A DNA stretch of 32,000 nucleotides, taken from positions 510,001 to 542,000 of the forward strand of contig JBDHVY010000001.1 in assembly GCA_039809905.1 (NCBI GenBank), written 5' to 3'. This document shows, piece after piece, positions 766 to 26,354 of the stretch. The notes under the pieces were generated by a model that saw nothing but the letters and a program-made list of their open reading frames with translations, had not been told where the DNA came from and ran no database searches. The first letter of the stretch is position 1, and each line of letters begins with the position of its first letter. The DNA is from Candidatus Babelota bacterium. GTDB taxonomy: Bacteria; Babelota; Babeliae; Babelales; Vermiphilaceae. The position numbers and the translations under genes were made by a program.

Positions 766-1440
766 TTATATGTTTCTATTTTTTTCTTCTAATTCTTTCT
801 CTACCAATTCCGCTGTTTTTGATACCTTTTTAATCCATCTTAATAAAATATCTTGTTTTTCTTCATGCGATAATTGCCAGTTATATTCTGATTTGTGTAA
901 TCGATTAATAACATCATATAAGCATAAAGCAACACTTACCGACACATTAAAACTTTCTACAAAACCAAACATTGGTATTTTTACAAACATATCTGCTTGC
1001 GCAAGAGCTTCTTGAGATAATCCCGTTTGTTCACTGCCAAAAAGAAGTGCCGTTTTTTGGTCAAGAGGCAAATCAGGCAATGAATATGATTGTAAATGCG
1101 GCGTTGTTGCAACAATGCGATAGCCTTCCTTTTTTAAGGCAGCAATAGAATCGGTAATTGAGGAATGTGATCTCACATCAACCCATTTTGATGCTCCCAT
1201 AGAAATGGTATCAACTGCTTTAAATTGATATTGCGCTTGCACTACGTTTACATCTTGTACCCCAAAAATATCACACGTACGTAATGCTGCACTGGCATTA
1301 TGTGATTGAAAAAGATCTTCAAGGACTACGGTTATATATCGTGTACGGTTTTGTAGCACTTCGTGCATTTTTTGAGTCTTATTTTCAGTAATGTACTGCA
1401 AGAGGTGATTTATTAATGGTGATTTATCAGAAATATCCAT
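766..1440 (-). CDS. trmH: SpoU/TrmH-family tRNA (guanosine-2'-O)-methyltransferase
   Basis: The 224-aa ORF has TrmH-like motifs: RYITVVLEDLFQSHNASAALRTCDIFGVQDVNVV, GYRIVATTPH, LLFGSEQTGLSQEAL and IPMFGFVESFNVSVSVAL. Size matches E. coli TrmH (about 229 aa). Confidence 0.85.
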   Translation of the reverse strand: MDISDKSPLINHLLQYITENKTQKMHEVLQNRTRYITVVLEDLFQSHNASAALRTCDIFGVQDVNVVQAQYQFKAVDTISMGASKWVDVRSHSSITDSIAALKKEGYRIVATTPHLQSYSLPDLPLDQKTALLFGSEQTGLSQEALAQADMFVKIPMFGFVESFNVSVSVALCLYDVINRLHKSEYNWQLSHEEKQDILLRWIKKVSKTAELVEKELEEKNRNI

Positions 1441-1531
1441 TGCTTTTTTGCCTGTATTTTAAAAGAATTATTATTTTTTAGTATACAATTGTTTGAAATG
1501 AAGGGATATAGGGAATAAGGGGAAAGATTAA

Positions 1532-1706
1532 GATTAATGCCCAATCTTATTGGGCTCCCGCACAAAAATTGAATTTTTGTGGAATTTACGTAGGGGTTCC
1601 TTGTCCGAACCCCTACAACCCCAGACACAACCATCCTGGTTGAACTCTTTCGGCATGAACTCGGGCTCTCATCTGCTGCGAGGACTACGCAGCTTCAAAC
1701 CCTCAT
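1532..1706 (-). repeat. Left arm of a GC-rich inverted pair. Candidate structured RNA or leader read toward trmH.
   Basis: This arm aligns as the reverse complement of 1953-2130. It contains hairpins gctgcg/cgcagc, aggggttc/gaacccct (loop GGACAAG on the - strand), cacaaaaat/atttttgtg and gcccaat/attgggc. It stands out as GC-rich against the AT-rich surroundings. Confidence 0.7.
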
Positions 1707-1952
1707 CGGGCTGCGCCCTCTTGGCAGCATAGCCTCATGGGACTTTTCACCAATAAAATTCAAGCTTTGCTTGATTCTAGATGTTTTGAAGGAGAGTAGG
1801 ATGAAGCTCGCCTTACCGGCGATAGAGATAAAACTAATTGTAGGGTTGTTTTACTGAGCGTGTGCCCGCGAAAGTAGGGTCGTAATTGAGTAGAATTATA
1901 AGAGGACAAAGTTGGATAAAATAAAGACTTTATACCACTGAAAAATACTGTA

Positions 1953-2130
1953 TGAAGGGTTTGAGACTGCGTAGCTTTGCGCAGCAGGTGAAAGCCCAAG
2001 TTTATTTTTCATCAGGGATCCAAGGGAACGTTGGGGTCTGGGGGTGTGGGGGGCCGGACCAGGGCCCCACCACGAAATTCCACAAAAATATAATTTTTGT
2101 GCGGGTGCCTAACTATATTGGGCATTAATC
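1953..2130 (+). repeat. Right arm of a GC-rich inverted pair. Candidate structured RNA or leader read toward the thioredoxin gene.
   Basis: It carries the same four hairpins with different stem sequences: ctgcg/cgcag, ggggcc/ggcccc (loop GGACCAG), cacaaaaat/atttttgtg and gcctaa/ttgggc. The last stem needs a U-G pair that exists only on the + strand. It is followed by attaatcttttttc, a T-run. Confidence 0.7.
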
Positions 2131-2233
2131 TTTTTTCTCATTCAATTTAAATCGTTGCACCCCCATTTGACAACCAATAACCCACTAATTACAATTAAAA
2201 ATAAGACAATCTAACCACAAAAAAGGTATCCCA

Positions 2234-2644
2234 ATGAAAAAAAATCTTTTATCTACACTATCTGCAATAATAATATCTACCGCCCTCATATCCCTCTGCT
2301 CTCAAAAAACAACCTCTCAGAATCTAATATATCTTCACCAGCAAACTAAATCCCTTAATGCTTTCATTACAACAGGTGATGTTATTTTGGATTTTTATGC
2401 AGATTGGTGCAACCCTTGCAAACGCATGTCACCACTCATTGATGCTGTTGCAGCACTTATGCCGCAATTCACGTTTATTAAAATCAATCGTGATAACTTT
2501 CGCGATTTAGCAAAATCATATAATATCACCAGCATTCCAACGCTTATCTTCTTGCGTGACGGTAAAGAAATTGGACGTTATGATGGTGGCCCACTGACAG
2601 AAACAAAGCTTCAAAACTTAGTTTCTTCTGTTTATAACAAGTAA
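2234..2644 (+). CDS. Exported thioredoxin-family protein (WCNPC active site)
   Basis: The 136-aa ORF has an N-terminal hydrophobic leader, MKKNLLSTLSAIIISTALISLCSQ. It then has a thioredoxin fold signature: ILDFYADWCNPCKRMSPLID ... ITSIPTLIFLRDGKE. Confidence 0.85.
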   Translation: MKKNLLSTLSAIIISTALISLCSQKTTSQNLIYLHQQTKSLNAFITTGDVILDFYADWCNPCKRMSPLIDAVAALMPQFTFIKINRDNFRDLAKSYNITSIPTLIFLRDGKEIGRYDGGPLTETKLQNLVSSVYNK

Positions 2645-8082: not shown

Positions 8083-8668
8083 CCTCTAATCTTTTAAGGT
8101 TTGGTTATGTTCATTCACAATAAATACATTATCGGTATCTTCAATAGCATATTCCATCAAAGTTACCCAACAAAATAATGAAAAAATATTCTTATTTTTT
8201 TTAAATAGTTGCTATATGAAAAAAGATCATATGTGGTATCATTCTAGGATAATGACTAAGCCCCTTATAATCAAATAGTTTTTATAACTTTTTATTGAAA
8301 ATATATTCTTAAATTTTTTTCAACCTTCGAATTAAAATTAATACATTTAGAATAAAAACATTGTTGTGATGTTATATTTCCATTTCATCGACTACACAGA
8401 AAGAACTCATCATTTTTATTCAAAAAAAAGAGACCCGTTATAAATACAAACAAGAAAATGATTCCAAAAAACATTTTTTTAAAAAGGTCTAATCGTTAAT
8501 TTCTTACTTAAAAAGAATAATTTTATCTTTTTAAATACCTTATAAGTAATCTTATTGAAATAAATTTATAATTTTTTTTTAAAACTTATTAACTTTATCC
8601 ACAAAAATCTTCTATAATAGAAATAGGTCGTATAAAAATTGATACTTTATAACAAAAAAGAGCTTATT

Positions 8669-11600
8669 ATGAAACATTTTAATAGATTATGTATCTTTTT
8701 AATGGGGCTTTTAATCAATTTCTCCATAGCATGGAGCATGGATCGATCTTCCTTGCTTGGATCATTAGAATCCCCTCAAGTTCTTTCTAAAGCTGCTAAT
8801 AAACCAAATGATGATGTAGATAAGGCCATTATAAATCAAGACTCTCGTTATTTCCAGAATGATCTTAAAGCATTAATCAACGCTATTCCTTACTATACAA
8901 CACATGCTAAGGATAATAATACATCAAAACAAAACGCCCTAAATGCACTACAACTTTTGTATTTTCATCCTAAAAGTACGAATCACGATCTTATTCTCAA
9001 TGCTTTAAATGAAATAGCAGGAAATCAATCGATTTCACCCGACAATATGCAAAAGATTTTGCAACCATACCACCAGAAACAAGCTCCTCAATTGAAGCAA
9101 CCCTCACAACTAGCACGAGCACCGCAAATCAAAAAAAATGAAACGTCAAATTTTGATACAAAAATTTCTGACATTGAAAATGAGCTTGAAAACATTCAAA
9201 AAAACACAGTTCTAACTAAAAAAGAAAAGTTGCAACAAATAGAACATTTGTATAAAGAACTTGATTTAATCAGGTCTCGCTCTTTAAAAACAACAATCCC
9301 TAAATCAGCACCTTCAAAAATACAAATGTCCAATTGGGTTAGAATAGAAAAAGCTTTACAACAAGCTTATGAAAATATCAAAAACCCTCAAGCAACAACT
9401 TTTGCCTTGCAGTCTTCTGGTTTTCAAGATCAAGATAGATCTCAAGGATCATCACTCAACCAACTAGAAGAATCAATGTTTTATGAACCATCAGAAAATG
9501 AGCTCCTTGAAGAACTCAATATTACCGCTAGCAACATTATTAACAATTTAGAATGGTTACTTAAGATATCTAAGATTGAAAATGTTGATGAAATAAAGCA
9601 TCAACTTGGAAATATCCAGAAAATAAAACAACAGGTCCACGATTTTATTTTTCGTATGGTTCAACAAATTACCAATATAGAAAACATCCCTGTTAATTCA
9701 AAACGTTTAATTGATTTACAAGACATACGGCGAAAAATCAATGCTTTTGTTCCAGGACAAAAGTTAGATATAGAACTGCTTATAACTGAAGTAAAAGCAA
9801 TACAACAAATAACAATCGATAACATAAAAAACAAAGACTCTTTACAGGATCTTGGGACAAGCGCTCTTAGAATAAATGCAGCTGTAGAAAATTTAGAAAA
9901 AAAACGTATAAGAAAAGATAGAAGAACTGTTGTAGCAAGATTAAAGCAAGAGCATGAAGCTCTCAAAGAAATTGCTATTCCCATACAAGAAGATTTTAAA
10001 AGACCTATAACTGAAAGAATTTTCTCTCTAAAAGTTGGTGAAAAATATATAAATTTATTAAAACAACATATTGCAACACTAGAAGAATACGTAGATCTTC
10101 GACCAAGACTTAGAGAAAAAACTAAAGAAAATATTAAAAAGAATAGAGATACACTCGAAATTGCAATGAACCAGATATACAAATTTAAATATCCTTCAAT
10201 GCAAAAACCATGGATTATGGATATTTTTGATCAGATTAATCAGGCAGTACTGCTCAATAACGCAAAGCTGTTTAGAGAAGCGATTGAATCTTACAATAAA
10301 AAACTTTTTGTTTCAAAAACTAAATTTGAGGAATTAAATACAGCTGATGACTTTAAAAGAGAAACAATAAAAGCTTATGCTCAATCTTTATCTAAAACAT
10401 TGTCTCCCACGCAAGATACCATTCGAAAGAATGCTGCTCAATTAATTCCGCCTTATCTCGATCAATTATACAGCTATCAATTAGAAGAAAAAAATGTTGC
10501 TATGATTGAATTGGAAAAAGAGACTATTTTAAAAATCATTGCTTGTATATTCGATACTCCTAGTAATCCGTATGCGAACTTAATTAAAGATATTATTTCT
10601 TCTGAGCGGATATTAGATATAGAAAAAAGACACACATGTCTTCTTCTTGTGAATAAACAAGGAAATTTTTATCCAAAACTAAAATCTGCTGCTGTTCAAG
10701 AAATTATTGATAACATTGCAAAAGATTATAATGTATCATCTCATCAACAAAACTTTAAGCAACAACAAGATCAATTTATTGCTCAAGCTATAAAATGCCT
10801 TACTATCTTACCAACAATGGAACCAATACTTTCAGGAACATTACCAATCTCTAGAATTGGTGATAGTGAGATGGAAGATTATTTAGATAAAATAGAATTA
10901 TTAAATCGAAATATTAATGATTCTTCTATAAAAGAAAAGCTAGAAAAAATTTCAAAAGACATCTTGGATGAAAGTACAAAACGATTAAATGTTCGTATCA
11001 TTACACCTGTAACACCAGAAGAACCGAAAAAAGAAGAACCAACTAACCCAGAGATTACAACTTCTAGTAGTTCCGAAGAAAATCCATCGATTGAAGAAGA
11101 ACTCCCAAATGTTAATTGGAGTGATTTTGAGGAAATGGTTGCAGCACAACAAGAACCTACAAAGCCTACAAAATCAATGGTTGCTGTGCCAGCAAATGAA
11201 TCACCCGAAGGGGAACCTCAAGCTGAACAAAAAGCTATTATTAAGCCTAATGTTCCACAAATACCAACTGAACCTAAGCCAGAACCAAAACACGAATTGA
11301 GTAGAGAAATAGAACAAGCTGAACCTGGAACAGAACAAAAATCAGAGCCAACTGAATCTGACGCAGAAAAAATATTCGATATTTCTGAAGGAAAACCTGA
11401 ATGGTGGGGAAAATCGGAACGTCGCCCAGCTCAACCTGCGGTTGAAACAAATGAACAACCAAAACCTTATGAATGGGAAAAAATAGATAAACTTTATCCT
11501 CAACCAGAAACATCTAATACACCAGAATTACCAACCAACCAGTCATCATGGAAATCTATGTTGGATTCTACCTGGAAGTATATATCAACTAATGCTTATA

Positions 11601-15852: not shown

Positions 15853-18800
15853 ATGCAAAAGGCTTTTATGCAAAAAATTAATCATCTGCTTCTGATAACA
15901 CTATTATGCCATGCTACTGCAGCTTTAGCAGAACAAGTCCCAACCTCAATATTTCAAGAAGCACGTAGCGGTAACGCACAAGCAATAAAAGAACGTCTTG
16001 AAGAATGGCAAGATTGTAGCGCAAAAGATGAAAATGGAAATACCGCTCTTCATATTGCAGCACAAAAAGGACATACAGAAATAGTTGATATGCTTACCAC
16101 AGAACAAAAATTTTTAGAATGGGATTGGAATTATCTGTGTTCATGGGTGCAAACACCAGCAAAATTACCCAACAAAAATGGAAAAAATAATGATGGCAAT
16201 ACACCATTGCATTGTTCTATTGAAGCGGGTCAAGAAAAAGCAACAGAATGCTTATTACAAAAAAATGTCGATACAAATATCTGCAATAATCAAGAATATG
16301 TTCCTTCATTCATGATACTTGCACAAGATAATCCGACATTGATTCCTCTTTTGAAACATCATAATTGTCTCAACAAAAAAGTTAAAGGTAATACCGTTTT
16401 ACATGTTGCAATTAAACAAAATAAACCACACATAGTAGAACGTTTATTAGATGAGCAATCTTTAGTTCACGAAAAAGATGCTGAAGGTAAAACAATTACA
16501 ACAATTGCTTTAGATGCAAGCAATATTCCTGTTTTAAACACATTAATTAAAAAGAATATTAACCTTAATGAACCAGATAAAGATGGTCAAAGACCAATGC
16601 ATCATGCCGCTCGTGATGGTAAATATGATATCCTCAACTTTCTTTTAGAACATAAAATTTCTCATAATGTGACTGATAAAGAAGGTAATACACCATTGCA
16701 TTATACTGCAATGTATAACCGTAAAAAGGAAATGGATCTTTTATTAGCACATACAGCCGATATACAGCAATGCAATAATGCGGGAGAAGATATATTCTTA
16801 ATTGCCGTTGATAAAAAGCATATAGATCTTGTAGAATATCTTGCTAAAAAACCCGGTATCAATATTAATATTCGCGATAAAAAAGGGCAGACTGCCTTTA
16901 TGCGAACAACCATAGCACAAGATTATACTGGTTCAAAAAAATTGTACGACCTTGGTGTTAATCTGCGTCTTACTGATTATGATCAAGAAAACGTACTTCA
17001 CAAAGCAGCCGCTCTTGGTAACGAGGATATTACAAAACTTGTTCTTAGCCGTGATAAAACATTGCTCGAAATTAAAAACAAACACGGTGAAACTCCTTTA
17101 TTTGTAGCAGTAAAAAATGGTCGCTATGCCATTTCTCAAGCATTGATACAACAATATGGCGCATCAATAAACAGCACCAATAATAATGGCGAAAATCCTC
17201 TGTTTGTTGCCATAGCAAAAGGTTATGAAACCTCCACAAAAATATTATTGCAAGCGGGAGCTTCAGTAAACACTAAAAATAAATTTGGCGAAACTCCACT
17301 ATTAGTAGCAGTAAAAAATGGCAGAGCCGAACTTGTTACATTATTAACACAACAATATAATGCACCAGTAAATATTACGAGCAACAATGGGTCTATTCCT
17401 CTGTTTATTGCCGTAGAAAATGGTTACCAAAATACCACGAAAGCGTTGCTCAAAGCTGGCGCATCTCTTCTTACTAAAAATAAAGAAGGTGAAAGCATTC
17501 TTCATGTTGCTGCACAACTATCAGATACTACTATATTGTCAGATCTCTTGAATCAACCCAATAAACCAGATATCAACATCCTCAATAGCGCCAAATTAAC
17601 ACCATTGCATTGCGCAGCACAATCTAATAATGTTGCAGGAATAAAATTATTAGAACAACACGGCGCAGGTTGGAATTATATAACTCCTCAAGGAAATACT
17701 ATTGCTCATTCCGCTATTGAGAAAAACGCTGTTAAAGCTCTTGATTATATAATTACAAGAGATCCACAGCTTCTTAATATTGAAAATAAAAGTGAACATA
17801 CTCCATTACTTTTAGCGGCTAAAATGAATGCTCTTTCTTGTGCAAAAAAAGCATTACGGGAAAAAGATTTTATAAATAAAGACATTGAACGAGCAATCAA
17901 TATAGCAATTCATTTTTCTCATCCTGATATGCGTCATTTCTTAGAAAGTGAAATCACGGATCGAAAAAATCGTCGCAGAAAAATAGGCAACATGTATCAT
18001 GAAATTGATTCCATAATCAGTGACAATCGCGCAACAGTTGCTACATTGGTACTGAAAAATATTATGAGCTCAAGAGAATACAATCCAGGTCTAGTAAACC
18101 ATTATACTGATCATCAATTATATCACATGACTGAAACTGAAATAATTGAAGTACATAACTACTATCTTGAACGTAAAAATAAGGAACTACAGTACAAAAA
18201 TGTTGTGACGCAACGATTAAATACCGTCTTGCAACAAGAAGCCGCGCAAAGAGAAGCTGAAAAAGAACTTAAACGTATTGCACGAGAAAGAGAACGCGCT
18301 GAAGAAGAAGCTCGCCTTCAACGCATTGAAGACCAAAAGCGCCGTGAACGTGAACTAAAAGAAAAACTTGAAAGAGAGGCTTTGCAAGCACAAAGAGCAC
18401 GCGAGTTAGAATTTAAACAAAAACAACTTGCAGAAGAACAAGCTCGCCTTGCACGTATCGAAGAACAAAATCGCCGTGATCGTGAGTTACGAGAAGCTCA
18501 AGAAAAAAAGACTGCCTTAGAAGCACAAAAAGCACGTGAATTAGAATTTAAGCAAAAACAAGAAGCGGAAGAAAAAGCTAAACAAGCTGCTCTCAAAGCA
18601 CAACAAGATGAAATAGATCGCCGCAATAAGGAAAAAGCCGCACAAGATGCATGGCAAGCAGACATGGTACGTAAACAAAAAGAAGTTACCGCTGCAATTG
18701 CTGCCGATAAAGAACGTGCACGTCAACAACAACATAGTAATGCCTTGGAAGGCCAGCATATACCACAGAATCTACAACCAAGTGCACCGCCAATGGAAAA

Positions 18801-19176
18801 CATAACAGTTGAAATTTTATGTTCATCATGTGGAAAAAAAGCATCAGCTAAGCCTCTGCCATGCAATAATGGTAAATGCAGAAAAAAAACAGCAAACTTA
18901 TGCAATGATTGTTTAAAACAACACAATAAAGGACAATGCCCTACCTGCTGGAACACCATTGGTAAATTCACACAAAAAGAAATAGATCAATGTTGCATCT
19001 GCACAGAAAAACAATCTGTTACTCCTATGCCATGCAATAATTGCAAAATCGGGAGCGCTCGCATTTGCAAGGAGTGTCTAGGTGATTGCCTTCAAAGCAA
19101 TCCTCATAAATGTCCAACATGCATGCAAGATGCATACAATAAAGACTTGATAGAAAAAGTTTTAAATCAGAAATAA
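15853..19176 (+). CDS. Exported ankyrin-repeat protein with a coiled-coil repeat region and two C-terminal 8-Cys zinc-binding (RING-like) modules
   Basis: The 1107-aa ORF has the signal peptide MQKAFMQKINHLLLITLLCHATAALA and about 16 ANK repeats (GNTALHIAAQKGHTEIVDML and similar). An E/R/K/Q coiled coil spans about 18240-18730. The C-terminus has CxxC-x10-Cx4C-x7-CxxC-x8-CxxC and then CxxC-x10-CxxC-x7-CxxC-x11-CxxC (18811-19140). Confidence 0.9.
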   Translation: MQKAFMQKINHLLLITLLCHATAALAEQVPTSIFQEARSGNAQAIKERLEEWQDCSAKDENGNTALHIAAQKGHTEIVDMLTTEQKFLEWDWNYLCSWVQTPAKLPNKNGKNNDGNTPLHCSIEAGQEKATECLLQKNVDTNICNNQEYVPSFMILAQDNPTLIPLLKHHNCLNKKVKGNTVLHVAIKQNKPHIVERLLDEQSLVHEKDAEGKTITTIALDASNIPVLNTLIKKNINLNEPDKDGQRPMHHAARDGKYDILNFLLEHKISHNVTDKEGNTPLHYTAMYNRKKEMDLLLAHTADIQQCNNAGEDIFLIAVDKKHIDLVEYLAKKPGININIRDKKGQTAFMRTTIAQDYTGSKKLYDLGVNLRLTDYDQENVLHKAAALGNEDITKLVLSRDKTLLEIKNKHGETPLFVAVKNGRYAISQALIQQYGASINSTNNNGENPLFVAIAKGYETSTKILLQAGASVNTKNKFGETPLLVAVKNGRAELVTLLTQQYNAPVNITSNNGSIPLFIAVENGYQNTTKALLKAGASLLTKNKEGESILHVAAQLSDTTILSDLLNQPNKPDINILNSAKLTPLHCAAQSNNVAGIKLLEQHGAGWNYITPQGNTIAHSAIEKNAVKALDYIITRDPQLLNIENKSEHTPLLLAAKMNALSCAKKALREKDFINKDIERAINIAIHFSHPDMRHFLESEITDRKNRRRKIGNMYHEIDSIISDNRATVATLVLKNIMSSREYNPGLVNHYTDHQLYHMTETEIIEVHNYYLERKNKELQYKNVVTQRLNTVLQQEAAQREAEKELKRIARERERAEEEARLQRIEDQKRRERELKEKLEREALQAQRARELEFKQKQLAEEQARLARIEEQNRRDRELREAQEKKTALEAQKARELEFKQKQEAEEKAKQAALKAQQDEIDRRNKEKAAQDAWQADMVRKQKEVTAAIAADKERARQQQHSNALEGQHIPQNLQPSAPPMENITVEILCSSCGKKASAKPLPCNNGKCRKKTANLCNDCLKQHNKGQCPTCWNTIGKFTQKEIDQCCICTEKQSVTPMPCNNCKIGSARICKECLGDCLQSNPHKCPTCMQDAYNKDLIEKVLNQK
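17080..17481 (+). repeat. Tandem duplication of a two-ankyrin unit (about 201 bp, two copies)
   Basis: KHGETPLFVAVKNGRYAISQALIQQYGASINSTNNNGENPLFVAIAKGYETSTKILLQAGASVNTKN matches KFGETPLLVAVKNGRAELVTLLTQQYNAPVNITSNNGSIPLFIAVENGYQNTTKALLKAGASLLTKN. DNA similarity is visible at 17080 and 17281. Confidence 0.8.
18310..18576 (+). repeat. Tandem ~132-135-bp (44-45 codon) repeat in the coiled-coil region
   Basis: gctcgcctt occurs at 18310 and 18442. Both units encode ARL(Q/A)RIE(D/E)Q(K/N)RR(E/D)REL...A(R/K)ELEFKQKQ. Confidence 0.8.
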
Positions 19177-19184
19177 TAATAGGT

Positions 19185-19220
19185 AAACGCGAGTCGTATG
19201 AATAAGTACGACTCGCGTTT
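19185..19220 (+). terminator. Long GC-containing hairpin after the ankyrin gene; probable terminator without a U-tract
   Basis: aaacgcgagtcgta (19185-19198) pairs with tacgactcgcgttt (19207-19220), a 14-bp perfect stem with an 8-nt loop. It starts 9 nt after the stop at 19176. Confidence 0.55.
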
Positions 19221-19233
19221 ATACAAAAAAACA

Positions 19234-20328
19234 ATGCTATACAATAAAAATTTTTTTATTATTTTTTATTTTTTTATTATCGGAATCATATCTTATGGAG
19301 CTGAAAATAAAGGCTTAGCTCATTTATATAAGATAGAAAAAATTGATGCTGATGCTAATACAAAGCATGTAACACATATTACCAACAATATTATTGCCAT
19401 AACCAATAATAATCAATTGCACATTTTACAATTAAACCCAGTACAAAAAATCCATAGCATTAAGATTGTTGATGAAGAGCTCTTAAGTCACTCAATATTT
19501 CATACACATGATAATAAGATTATAGCTGCTTCACGCAATAAGATTCTTATATATGATCTGGAGACAAAGAAACAACAGCTTGAAGAACAATTTTTAAATC
19601 AATTTATTACAGCTACAACTATCCATCCCCGCAAGAGCATACTTTTTGTATTGTCTTCAATTAATGGCTTTGTTACAAAATACAATTATGTAACAAAAGA
19701 ATCAGAATCTTTCGATCTACCTCAAGAAACTTGGACACGCATGAGCATTCATCCAAACAAGGAGATTATGTGTTTAGCCAGCGATAGAATGCTTTCTTTC
19801 TGTCCATTAGAAAATTTAAATACAATAGAGGCTATTGGACACACTCACAAAATTGTACTTTTTTGCAACTATAGTCCTGATGGATCTTATATAGTTACAG
19901 GAGACGCCTATGGGATTTCCGCAATACATCTCAATAAAAAATCTAATGAGTTAACGATACTTGCAAAAAATGAGCGTTTTCTGAATATAAAATTTCACCC
20001 AAATGGCTTGTTGGCTATTTTTACTGCTCAATACTCTGGACCTTCTGAAAGTTCAATAGGCCGATCGCTATACTTCTGGGACTTAAAAGAAAGAAAATGT
20101 GTTCATGTGATGCCTTATCTAAAAATTAACAGTGAAGATGATTTTTCTTTTTCCAAGAATGGTCTAGAGGTTGTTATTGCAGGGTATAAAAGTATTATAA
20201 AAACATATGTTCCTTTTGTTGTACAAGAATATGAAAAACTTTTTATCTGGTTAAAAAAGCTTGAACAACAACATCTGATATCAAAAGATATTATAATGCA
20301 CTGTTTGAACATTTTTTTGAGGCGTTAG
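19234..20328 (+). CDS. Exported or membrane-anchored WD40-like beta-propeller protein
   Basis: The start of ORF 19198..20328 lies inside the upstream hairpin. ATG 19234 gives MLYNKNFFIIFYFFIIGIISYGA, a hydrophobic leader. Degenerate WD-like blades are visible: ILIYDLETKK, TTIHPRKSILFV, MSIHPNKEIMCLASD, YSPDGSYIVTGDAYG, KFHPNGLLAIF and LYFWDLKERK. Confidence 0.7.
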   Translation: MLYNKNFFIIFYFFIIGIISYGAENKGLAHLYKIEKIDADANTKHVTHITNNIIAITNNNQLHILQLNPVQKIHSIKIVDEELLSHSIFHTHDNKIIAASRNKILIYDLETKKQQLEEQFLNQFITATTIHPRKSILFVLSSINGFVTKYNYVTKESESFDLPQETWTRMSIHPNKEIMCLASDRMLSFCPLENLNTIEAIGHTHKIVLFCNYSPDGSYIVTGDAYGISAIHLNKKSNELTILAKNERFLNIKFHPNGLLAIFTAQYSGPSESSIGRSLYFWDLKERKCVHVMPYLKINSEDDFSFSKNGLEVVIAGYKSIIKTYVPFVVQEYEKLFIWLKKLEQQHLISKDIIMHCLNIFLRR

Positions 20329-26011: not shown

Positions 26012-26064
26012 TTTTTGATTTTCGTCCTTCGATAGATTTTACTATCTCAAACATTTCGTAAAAC

Positions 26065-26116
26065 ATTCAGGCCGAACGGGTTAAAAATTTACTTTCTTAC
26101 TCCGTTCGGCCTGAAT
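26065..26116 (+). terminator. Perfect 15-bp GC-rich inverted repeat; probable operon terminator and member of the CGYTCGSCCTGAA repeat family
   Basis: attcaggccgaacgg (26065-26079) pairs with ccgttcggcctgaat (26102-26116) around a 22-nt spacer. It starts 54 nt after the stop at 26011 and is followed by atttatattt. Confidence 0.55.
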
Positions 26117-26168
26117 ATTTATATTTAAGCATGAATCTTTAAAATGACCCACCGCGCTCATTAGCTTA

Positions 26169-26226
26169 GCCCCATGCTTCACTCTGTTACACATGGGGTC
26201 CCCAATGAAACGAAGTGTAATTGGGG
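26169..26226 (+). repeat. Intercistronic hairpin family, copies c1 and c2 (adjacent double hairpin)
   Basis: c1 is GCCCCATG-cttcactctgttaca-CATGGGGT (8 bp; the terminal G-U works only on +). It is followed immediately by c2, tCCCCAAT-gaaacgaagtgta-ATTGGGG (7 bp). Confidence 0.7.
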
Positions 26227-26277
26227 TGAAAAGAATTAAGCGCATAAAAAAGCGCTCGAAAGATACCCTTCAACAAG

Positions 26278-26293
26278 TTCAGGGCGAGCGCAG
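26278..26293. repeat. Half-site of the GC-rich palindromic repeat family
   Basis: ttcagggcgagcgcag shares a 15-nt match, tcagggcgagcgcag, with 15629-15643. It can pair with ccgttcggcctgaa (26102-26115) with one mismatch and one wobble, enclosing 26116-26277. Confidence 0.6.
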
Positions 26294-26354
26294 CGAGAAA
26301 TAAACTAAGACAAGGAAAATTTAGTCTTCCGCAAGTTTGAAAAATTGGGCTTTT

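Follow-up and report, generated by a model that had tools for sequence, protein, structure and literature searches.

The GC-rich island that separates the divergent trmH and thioredoxin genes in the window, i.e., the whole 32,000-nt stretch of Babelota DNA analyzed here, is probably a non-autonomous mobile element of a previously undescribed family, which has so far been seen only in Babeliales-like (Dependentiae) sequences. It is bounded by imperfect terminal inverted repeats of ~190 nt, each of which represents a fixed series of hairpins (H1, H2, H3 and H3b, with H4 in some copies), and these repeats flank two non-palindromic inner blocks and a variable middle. With a middle of 84 bp, the present copy is MITE-like; with a middle of ~850 bp carrying the orphan gene of a secreted or membrane protein, as in another genome, the same design resembles a mobile insertion cassette. 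The element may be mobilized in trans, through an enzyme whose action is symmetrical at its two ends and which would read the hairpins in single-stranded or extruded DNA. The stems vary freely yet stay Watson-Crick, and the CTTrTCy loop and the linkers are constant and presented in the same outer-to-inner sense at both ends.

An insertion between trmH and the thioredoxin gene

The GC content is 0.45-0.47 at positions 1501-2100, compared with ~0.33 elsewhere in the window, where it reaches a maximum of 0.413 per 300-nt bin. The island is bordered by trmH (766-1440, minus strand; SpoU_methylase) and a thioredoxin gene with a signal peptide (2234-2644, plus strand). The first-pass annotation of this DNA had described it as the only long GC-rich non-coding stretch of an AT-rich window, filling the gap between these two genes, and this description is borne out.

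The boundaries of the element, which spans 631 bp at a GC content of ~0.46, are defined by inverted repeats together with a shared terminal motif (Table 1). A repeat search detected inverted arms at 1530-1626/2036-2132 (97 nt, 79%), inner segments at 85-89%, and an outer extension of the inverted repeat at 1513-1531/2125-2143. The chance expectation of a 30-mer common to both arms is 0.00, and the mean column identity between the left arm and the reverse-complemented right arm is 84% in a MAFFT alignment. The stretches 1532-1706 and 1953-2130 had already been recognized as reverse complements, a relation that holds with the outer limits shifted to 1513 and 2143. The terminal motif GAATrAGrrr-AAAGAnT(AAGAnT)n-AAT-sCCCAAT is common to four termini from three genomes. 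The length of the element falls within the range of roughly 100-800 bp that is applied to MITEs, no coding capacity was seen in it, and its two arms constitute terminal inverted repeats. A six-frame translation of the element (concatenated) found no match among 5.8e9 proteins. Its small ORFs are out of frame relative to each other across copies, and as the reading frames differ, the possibility that R-inner encodes a conserved small protein was ruled out.

No direct repeat that would indicate a target-site duplication is present at 1507-1512/2144-2149 of the window copy, which is the sole complete copy available. The palindromic TTAA/TA at 1534-1537 and 2125-2128 lies inside the inverted repeat and could be a target duplication only if the true ends were located inside the inverted repeat.

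The same gap was compared in six relatives. In L005, L006 and L042, whose TrmH proteins are 83%, 74% and 87% identical to that of the window, the divergent arrangement of trmH and the thioredoxin gene is kept, and the gaps of ~165, 165 and 252 bp contain no island. In the three others (L040, L041 and the P0005 contig), the gap is occupied by one or two large genes without a Pfam match; a derivation of the island from the large gap genes of L040/L041, as their remnant, was ruled out, as blastn and tblastx were both empty. When the element is removed, the window aligns to the empty sites through two blocks conserved in L005, L006 and L042, namely GTATACA and GGGATA..TAGG followed by CCATTTGmC. 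By these comparisons, the island is shown to be an insertion at trmH/trx that is absent from six relatives at the same gap.

The near-consensus promoter of the thioredoxin gene sits within the second conserved block, and the motif TGTATACT is likely to be the extended -10 promoter element of trmH. No conserved promoter was found inside the element. The insertion between the divergent promoters disrupted neither that of trmH nor that of the thioredoxin gene.

Hairpin series and polarity of the arms

Both arms, of ~190 nt each, contain the same row of local hairpins, and at the right end a terminator-like hairpin is followed by a T-run. The hairpins named in the first-pass annotation, i.e., H1, H2, H3 and CTGCG/CGCAG, are all real; H3b had been overlooked. 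The central part of 84 bp is specific to this copy and found no match in the other sequences compared.

Table 1. Features of the inserted element and of its flanks in the window; arms are read from outer to inner.
Feature	Position	Strand	Description
Whole inserted element	1513-2143	no strand	Inverted repeats, shared terminal motif, island-free orthologous gaps
Left arm (L end)	1513-1706	+	Outer to inner: purine-rich tract 1513-1538, H1, H2, H3, CCCCAGAC linker, H3b, H4, TCAAACCCT (1695-1703)
H1-L hairpin	1539-1555	+	GCCCAAT-CTT-ATTGGGC; one pair covaries, GC to CG
H2-L hairpin	1561-1581	+	CACAAAAAT-TGA-ATTTTTGTG
H3-L hairpin	1590-1616	+	GTAGGGGTTC-CTTGTCC-GAACCCCTAC; conserved 7-nt loop CTTrTCy
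H3b-L hairpin	1628-1642	+	CAACCA-TCC-TGGTTG; 3/6 pairs covary
H4-L hairpin (CTGCG/CGCAG)	1673-1693	+	CTGCTGCG-AGGACTA-CGCAGC
L-inner block	1697-1754	+	Non-palindromic, includes CTTGGCAGCATAGCCTCATGGGAC; 91-93% identical to left interior of L048, L056 and L060
Copy-specific middle, 84 bp	1755-1838	no strand	~850 bp with 203-aa ORF at same position in L048/L060
R-inner block	1839-1952	-	Primary-sequence conservation only: TTACTGAGCGTG, GAAAGTAG, GGATAAAATA, CTGTATGA
Right arm (R end)	1953-2143	-	Order read outer to inner on minus strand; terminal tract 2124-2143
H1-R hairpin	2107-2123	-	
H2-R hairpin	2081-2101	-	
H3-R hairpin	2046-2073	-	
H3b-R hairpin	2020-2034	-	
H4-R hairpin	1967-1987	-	
Thioredoxin promoter	2167-2195	+	TTGACA, 17-nt spacer, TACAAT; 11/12 matches; outside element
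Likely extended -10 element of trmH	1480-1487	-	TGTATACT on minus strand; GTATACA block; outside element

For the analysis of covariation, only five independent arms exist (window left, window right, L045, L048R and L056R/L060R); these were aligned, and hairpins H1, H2, H3 and H3b were scored. In the MAFFT alignment, 94.4% of the cells were paired and 10 of the 32 pairs showed double changes, a result that none of 500 shuffles equaled; when the partners were slid by 1-3 columns, at most 56% of the cells were paired and at most one pair was doubly changed. The covariance-model alignment of the five arms, which includes the complete L060 arm and is biased towards the modeled structure, yielded 95% paired cells, double changes in 15 of 32 pairs (19 cells) and just one one-sided change; again, 0/500 shuffles were as good, and no more than 57% of the cells were paired in the slid controls. 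The compensatory changes between the two window arms that had been proposed earlier are real, and the related copies extend them.

In H3, six of ten pairs are doubly changed across the arms and one-sided changes are entirely lacking. Around the loop CTTrTCy, this hairpin exists in five stem versions: GGGGTTC/GAACCCC, GGGGCC/GGCCCC, GGGAGCC/GGCTCCC, GGGGGCC/GGCCCCC and GGGGGTTT/AAACCCCC. The stem of H2 is unchanged in four arms and has five pairs flipped in L060R, giving ACTTTTGT/ACAAAAGT. Minimum free-energy folds run separately for each arm recovered H1-H3 in five of five cases, and the order, spacing and linkers of H1-H2-H3-H3b are identical in all five arms, from at least three genomes. The hairpin structure of the arms is thus constrained. 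Paired changes of this kind could also arise without selection, through template-switch correction of quasi-palindromes.

The hairpin CTGCG/CGCAG (H4), said to be kept in both window arms, is real; its covariation is not significant in either register. The H4 sequence is kept in four arms, and another module occupies its place in the L048R and L060R arms.

Folding of the whole element gives a single giant hairpin, with z ~ -13 for both strands. The five-arm covariation strongly supports the earlier view that local hairpins, and not one giant hairpin, are conserved. The outer 140 nt of the left arm form separate local hairpins (z = -4); the right arm by itself did not fold more stably than its shuffled versions (z = -1.5 to -1.8). 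The center of the element, taken alone, gave z-scores of -0.27 and -1.85, and neither a significant fold nor covariation was detected in the central/R-inner region by z-scores and covariation scoring. The structured central RNA of ~240 bp with a GAAA tetraloop, which the first-pass annotation had placed there, was dropped on these grounds.

The core identities between arms reveal the age of the two ends. Window left and window right share 73%, compared with 77.5% for window right and L045 (92% in the H4 region) and 79% for window left and L048R. Each window arm is at least as similar to arms from other genomes as it is to its partner, and the element therefore has distinct L and R ends of long standing. 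Furthermore, L-inner and R-inner are different sequences, each of which is conserved between genomes. The polarity of the element is shown by these comparisons to run from the L arm through L-inner, the variable middle and R-inner to the R arm. As far as the sequences tell, the arms have differed for a long time, and their hairpin architecture persisted while they diverged.

Whether the fold concerns RNA or DNA is addressed by the rare mismatches. G-U pairs are nearly absent from the five-arm alignment, with 19 double changes versus 1 single change. A T-G pair closes H1 in three arms on the outer-to-inner strand, and a C-A cell in H1 of the right window arm corresponds to U-G on the opposite strand. 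Because wobble cells occur in both strand senses, a lone U-G says little about the folding strand; the use of a U-G pair on the plus strand as a strand argument fails, and the outward transcription deduced from that single pair is not supported. In addition, the conservation of loops and linkers at one end mirrors that at the other, which fits an enzyme acting on both DNA ends rather than the need of a single transcript. We infer that it is in single-stranded or extruded DNA that the hairpins serve for recognition. A role as inward-reading RNA, e.g., insulation from flanking transcription, is a live rival.

When the whole window was searched against Rfam, no match reached the gathering threshold, and a relaxed cutoff of E<=10 in 1400-2300 added only a 12-bit chance match; ARAGORN detected neither tRNA nor tmRNA. 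The earlier failure to fit the element to known RNAs, for which a comparison with Rfam had been proposed, agrees with this outcome, as no Rfam family was recovered at E<=10 in that interval.

Related copies in Babeliales-like genomes

Relatives were recovered by searches of different stringency. Exact-pattern scans found no match to a 29-base H2 with flank in GTDB genomes or to TIR+H2 in JGI metagenomes. Two of three exact patterns had no match in IMG/VR, and the third matched a lone H2-like hairpin, which is attributed to chance. When the pattern was reduced to the H2 hairpin, JGI metagenomes yielded ten loci, of which three are true relatives by blastn and seven are lone hairpins. Plasmid and phage collections gave no match with blastn in distant mode.

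The L045 copy, located on a contig of 357 kb whose sample also yielded L042, comprises an R-type arm with the R-inner block; window 1851-2132 is 80.6% identical to L045 and 75% identical to L048. The L045 arm begins within ~15 nt of the stop codon of uvrA, and no element follows uvrA in L054 and L055, whose UvrA C-termini are 89-92% identical. L048 and L044 are two assemblies of one locus, in which the arm adjoins a REP-like hairpin and a 90-aa ORF. In L048, L044, L056 and L060-L063, the arms are arranged around an orphan 203-aa ORF. This ORF has a signal peptide and a C-terminal hydrophobic segment, and its sole Pfam match, Acyl_transf_3, is sub-threshold. In L048, L056 and L060-L063, L-inner (91-93% identical to window 1669/1697-1754) and R-inner enclose ~850 bp with the ORF, and the same ends therefore occur in a gene-less form, as in the window, and in a gene-carrying form. 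The organization of a mobile insertion cassette is found in L048, L056 and L060-63; the window copy, with its 84-bp middle and no gene, lacks it.

The copies also differ from one another in detail. The interiors of L048 and L060/L061 are 99% identical, and their outer arms and flanks differ, with the switch a few bases after H3b. In L044, an 84-nt two-hairpin unit is inserted exactly in the H3 loop, and L048 is otherwise identical without the unit. The intergenic regions of Babeliales are full of small GC-rich palindromes, e.g., GGGGWCCCC and CCCCAAT..ATTGGGG, to which H1 is similar.

By sequence similarity, the family is shown to occur at unrelated loci. The first-pass annotation had suggested a search for copies with blastn and for target-site duplications; related arms lie at unrelated loci on other contigs, and no duplication could be read at the window copy. 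With the covariance model, no further copy was detected in ~165 kb that comprised Babeliales-type and other sequence, and 190 kb contained neither a solo arm nor a partial series; of the 1.23-Mb genome, ~43.5 kb were covered and contain a single copy. The ~10 kb upstream of the window and the 1 kb downstream are free of a second copy, and neither the window nor the 10 kb upstream contains a transposase or recombinase, nor is one linked to any copy. The window proteins were also detected on Logan contigs of SRR27308757 and SRR27308745. A 75-kb Logan contig passes uninterrupted through the element, and near-identical copies elsewhere in this genome are therefore unlikely. Nothing in these sequences points to several copies in this genome or to recent activity there.

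The Dependentiae (TM6, Babeliales) live in protists as obligate intracellular bacteria; they are widespread, and almost all knowledge of them comes from metagenomes. The window fits this group, since several close TrmH homologues are labeled Candidatus Babeliales in NCBI and since a 1107-aa ankyrin protein and a WD40 protein are encoded in it. The literature searches on Dependentiae recovered no description of elements of this kind, and the Dependentiae genome papers checked by term search make no mention of mobile elements, transposases or palindromes. To our knowledge, no mobile elements have been characterized in this phylum. On the reading favored here, structured, GC-rich mobile DNA of one family or more resides in the reduced, AT-rich genomes of Dependentiae, and the same genomes contain smaller palindromic units that still move. 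Ends that are defined by covarying hairpins instead of sequence are rare among inverted-repeat elements and point to a single-strand or cruciform recognition step. The hairpin model could serve as a search handle for the family and its mobilizing enzyme in MAGs, and the inverted arms may explain assembly breaks at such loci.

A more far-reaching version, which we regard as rather unlikely when taken as a whole, would make the island the representative of a new class of Dependentiae hairpin-ended mobile cassette. Its ~190-nt ends would be recognized as folded ssDNA by a putative enzyme, possibly the one that moves REP-like palindromes into loops (L044); such a cassette could carry secreted-protein genes and perhaps flips or exchanges its interior just inside H3b.

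Rival readings and comparison with known systems

According to the leading idea of the first-pass annotation, the arms form a pair of cis-regulatory 5' leaders, or attenuators, one serving trmH and the other the thioredoxin gene. The arms do face both genes, their hairpins end ~100 nt before the start codons, and a T-run follows the right hairpin. However, the element is missing in six of six relatives despite conservation of the genes, the same arms lie downstream of uvrA and around an unrelated ORF, and conserved promoters are situated between the element and both start codons, by which the arms are excluded as 5' leaders of trmH/trx. The idea is contradicted and can be credited with almost no probability; divergent sRNAs, offered alongside it, find no support at this locus either. 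The third identity then proposed, a MITE-like insertion with long structured terminal repeats, fits the empty sites, the copies at unrelated loci and the outside promoters. RNA could still be involved if the arms were structured small RNA genes, or acted at the RNA level to block or stabilize read-in transcripts, and the element were a mobile carrier of two inverted copies. Such a role is in line with the strong covariation in four hairpins, the conserved loops and linkers, the terminator-like hairpin with its T-run, and the orientation of the wobble or near-wobble cells, three of four of which are G-U on the outer-to-inner strand; moreover, the arm of L045 would be transcribed, given its proximity to the uvrA stop codon. 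We nevertheless consider it unlikely, since no Rfam match at E<=10 and no conserved internal promoter were found, RNA helices are not usually so poor in G-U, the right arm by itself folds no more stably than its shuffled versions, and mirror-symmetric loops would mean that a single transcript carries complementary loops in its two arms.

Accretion provides another explanation for the hairpins, in which independently mobile REP-like hairpins gathered as a BIME-like mosaic at a permissive intergenic spot and the large inverted repeat is a by-product of alternating orientation. The abundance of small GC-rich palindromes between Babeliales genes and their resemblance to H1, the two-hairpin unit that distinguishes the H3 loop of L044 from that of L048, and the REP-like hairpin abutting the element end in both assemblies all suggest such traffic. 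Yet the invariant order, spacing and linkers of H1-H2-H3-H3b in five of five arms from at least three genomes, the inner blocks that travel with the arms, and the lack of any solo arm or partial series in the 190 kb covered by the covariance model make a mosaic distinctly unlikely. An invertible segment, whose arms would act as recombination substrates flipping the interior (the gene in L048/L060, possibly a promoter here), is still less probable. The 99% interior shared by L048 and L060/L061 between different arms and flanks is the pattern expected of inversion isomers; it is not diagnostic, as two loci or two strains would explain these contexts equally. The window copy does lie between divergent genes, but both have their own conserved promoters, no invertase or recombinase was found in the window or 10 kb upstream, and arms of 73-84% identity are poor substrates for homologous recombination. 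Finally, the element might be a eukaryote-type MITE acquired from a protist host, as with Submariner of Pandoravirus/Acanthamoeba (PMC4495683). The GC content lies far above that of the host genome, long TIRs in a near-palindromic element of 0.6 kb are typical of eukaryotic MITEs, and the TTAA/TA pair could be read as a palindromic target duplication. This origin is very improbable in view of an inverted repeat and a between-copy similarity that extend past TTAA to 1513 and 2143, diverged copies at different loci in at least three Babeliales-like genomes, and an H1 similar to bacterial REP-like hairpins.

For the non-autonomous mobile element favored here, the closest known kinds are prokaryotic MITEs and, for the gene-carrying relatives, mobile insertion cassettes (MICs). 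Correia/CREE of Neisseria is a prokaryotic MITE. Further comparison is offered by the QMITEs in Coxiella, which are prokaryotic MITEs (PMC5896051), a MITE of Cardinium (PMC9769881) and the near-palindromic Submariner MITE (PMC4495683). Like prokaryotic MITEs, the element is short, non-coding and intergenic, has terminal inverted repeats, is present or absent between related genomes, resides in an AT-rich host-restricted bacterium and can be folded as a whole into one long hairpin. Unlike them, it has unusually long arms (~190 nt) with four to five discrete, independently covarying hairpins, its L and R ends are old and distinct, and no target duplication, multi-copy burst or parent IS was seen in the sequences compared. 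MICs consist of IS-type ends around passenger genes without a transposase (PMC3129680, PMC5444012). The L048/L060 relatives resemble them in holding a 203-aa non-transposase ORF between the same inner blocks and arms; the gene-less window copy and ends without known IS derivation set the element apart.

REP/BIME with RAYT transposases, the ends of IS200/IS605 and PATEs serve as further comparison systems (PMC2817692, PMC3733652). REP/RAYT and IS200/IS605 ends are recognized as hairpins rather than sequence, with covarying stems and no target duplication; the element has covarying stems as well, shows no readable target duplication and would likewise be recognized by its hairpins. Small associated palindromes and the insertion into a hairpin loop nearby (L044) are also REP-like. 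However, REPs measure 20-40 bp, are high-copy and possess a GTAG or CGTC tag and a RAYT gene, whereas the element is a fixed series of ~130-190 nt; separate REP-like hairpins do occur in these genomes. The ends of IS200/IS605 (PATE) are not mutual inverted repeats and are both read on one strand, in contrast to the element, whose ends are inverted repeats with mirror-symmetric loops. No HUH TnpA or RAYT gene was found in the DNA read around the copies.

In integrons, the attC recombination sites owe their identity to a folded structure whose sequence is free to covary, and single-ORF cassettes are flanked by them. H1 (GCCCAAT/ATTGGGC, with GCCTAAC in the right arm) may recall the RYYYAAC/GTTRRRY boxes of attC. 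A single attC is present per cassette, together with an integrase, an array and attI; the element instead has two inverted 190-nt arms, its H1 loop spans just 3-5 nt, and it is accompanied by no integrase, array or attI. If the more far-reaching version given above is true, an obligate intracellular phylum would possess a structure-defined mobility system comparable to attC or REP.

Gene-carrying copies and their junctions

In the metagenome loci with related arms, the interior that comprises the 203-aa ORF and the non-palindromic inner blocks L-inner and R-inner is 99% identical between L048 and L060/L061; it is attached to a different outer arm and a different flank in each of the two (L048 1080-1411 versus L060/L061 1108-1356). 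The arms switch a few bases past H3b, one of the arm hairpins. L062 differs again: left of its inner repeat GGCAGCATGGCCTCATG lie 105 nt (1-105) of other sequence, which is GC-rich. These alternative junctions may represent inversion isomers, two separate loci or assembly artefacts, each of which is possible. Within the larger element, the ORF is bracketed by a 35-nt inner inverted repeat (88%; L048 23-57 and 867-900), of which the window holds the left copy only, at 1719-1742.

The arms apparently defeat short-read assemblers. The SRR27308745 Logan assembly is broken within the left arm of the window element, with one contig ending at 1587 and the next starting at 1596, and among assemblies of the L048-type locus, L048, L056 and L063 share their starting base (AAACCCT).

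L044 and L048 represent the same locus in two assemblies, whose sole difference is an 84-nt two-hairpin insertion (L044 1163-1246) placed exactly in the loop of the arm hairpin H3, CTTATC^CGG. No duplication at the insertion point is visible from comparison of the two, and the insertion looks like a small palindromic element recently inserted into a hairpin loop.

The trx-trmH gap and other regions

The intergenic position between the thioredoxin (trx) gene and trmH is a hot spot of DNA specific to individual lineages. In some relatives it is occupied by one or two large genes of 455-735 aa (L040 2323-4512; L041 507-3955; the P0005 contig), for which no Pfam match was found. Elsewhere in the window, an extremely AT-rich intergenic stretch (8101-8700; GC 0.18-0.23) lies upstream of a 1019-aa ORF, likewise lacking a Pfam match, and 15853-20328 encodes an ankyrin-repeat protein (1107 aa) and, after it, a WD40 beta-propeller protein (376 aa); both domains are eukaryote-like and typical of intracellular symbionts.

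Small palindromes and REP-like hairpins

Small GC-rich palindromes are clustered in the intergenic DNA at window 26012-26354. The palindrome beside the L045 element, a related arm after uvrA, shares 77% identity with window 26025-26079, adjoining this cluster, and is matched at 95% by L040 5945-5988.

Palindromes of the window cluster and REP-like hairpins of Babeliales intergenic DNA
Feature	Sequence	Location	Position
Palindrome	ATTCAGGCCGAACGG..CCGTTCGGCCTGAAT	window	26065-26116
Palindrome	CCCCATG..CATGGGG	window	26170-26198
Palindrome	TCCCCAAT..ATTGGGG	window	26199-26226
Palindrome	AAGCGC..GCGCT	window	within 26012-26354
REP-like hairpins		L042	6419, 9928, 10680, 13514, 16583, 20193
REP-like hairpin		L005	1979
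REP-like hairpins		L055	9935, 10124
REP-like hairpin		L048	1211-1240

The intergenic DNA of Babeliales repeatedly carries REP-like hairpins built as CCCCAT-N16-ATGGGGACCCC or GGGGTCCCCAAT..ATTGGGG, often directly 3' of stop codons, such as those of the RNR large subunit gene and trmH. The terminal hairpin of the element, H1, is similar to these REP-like hairpins.
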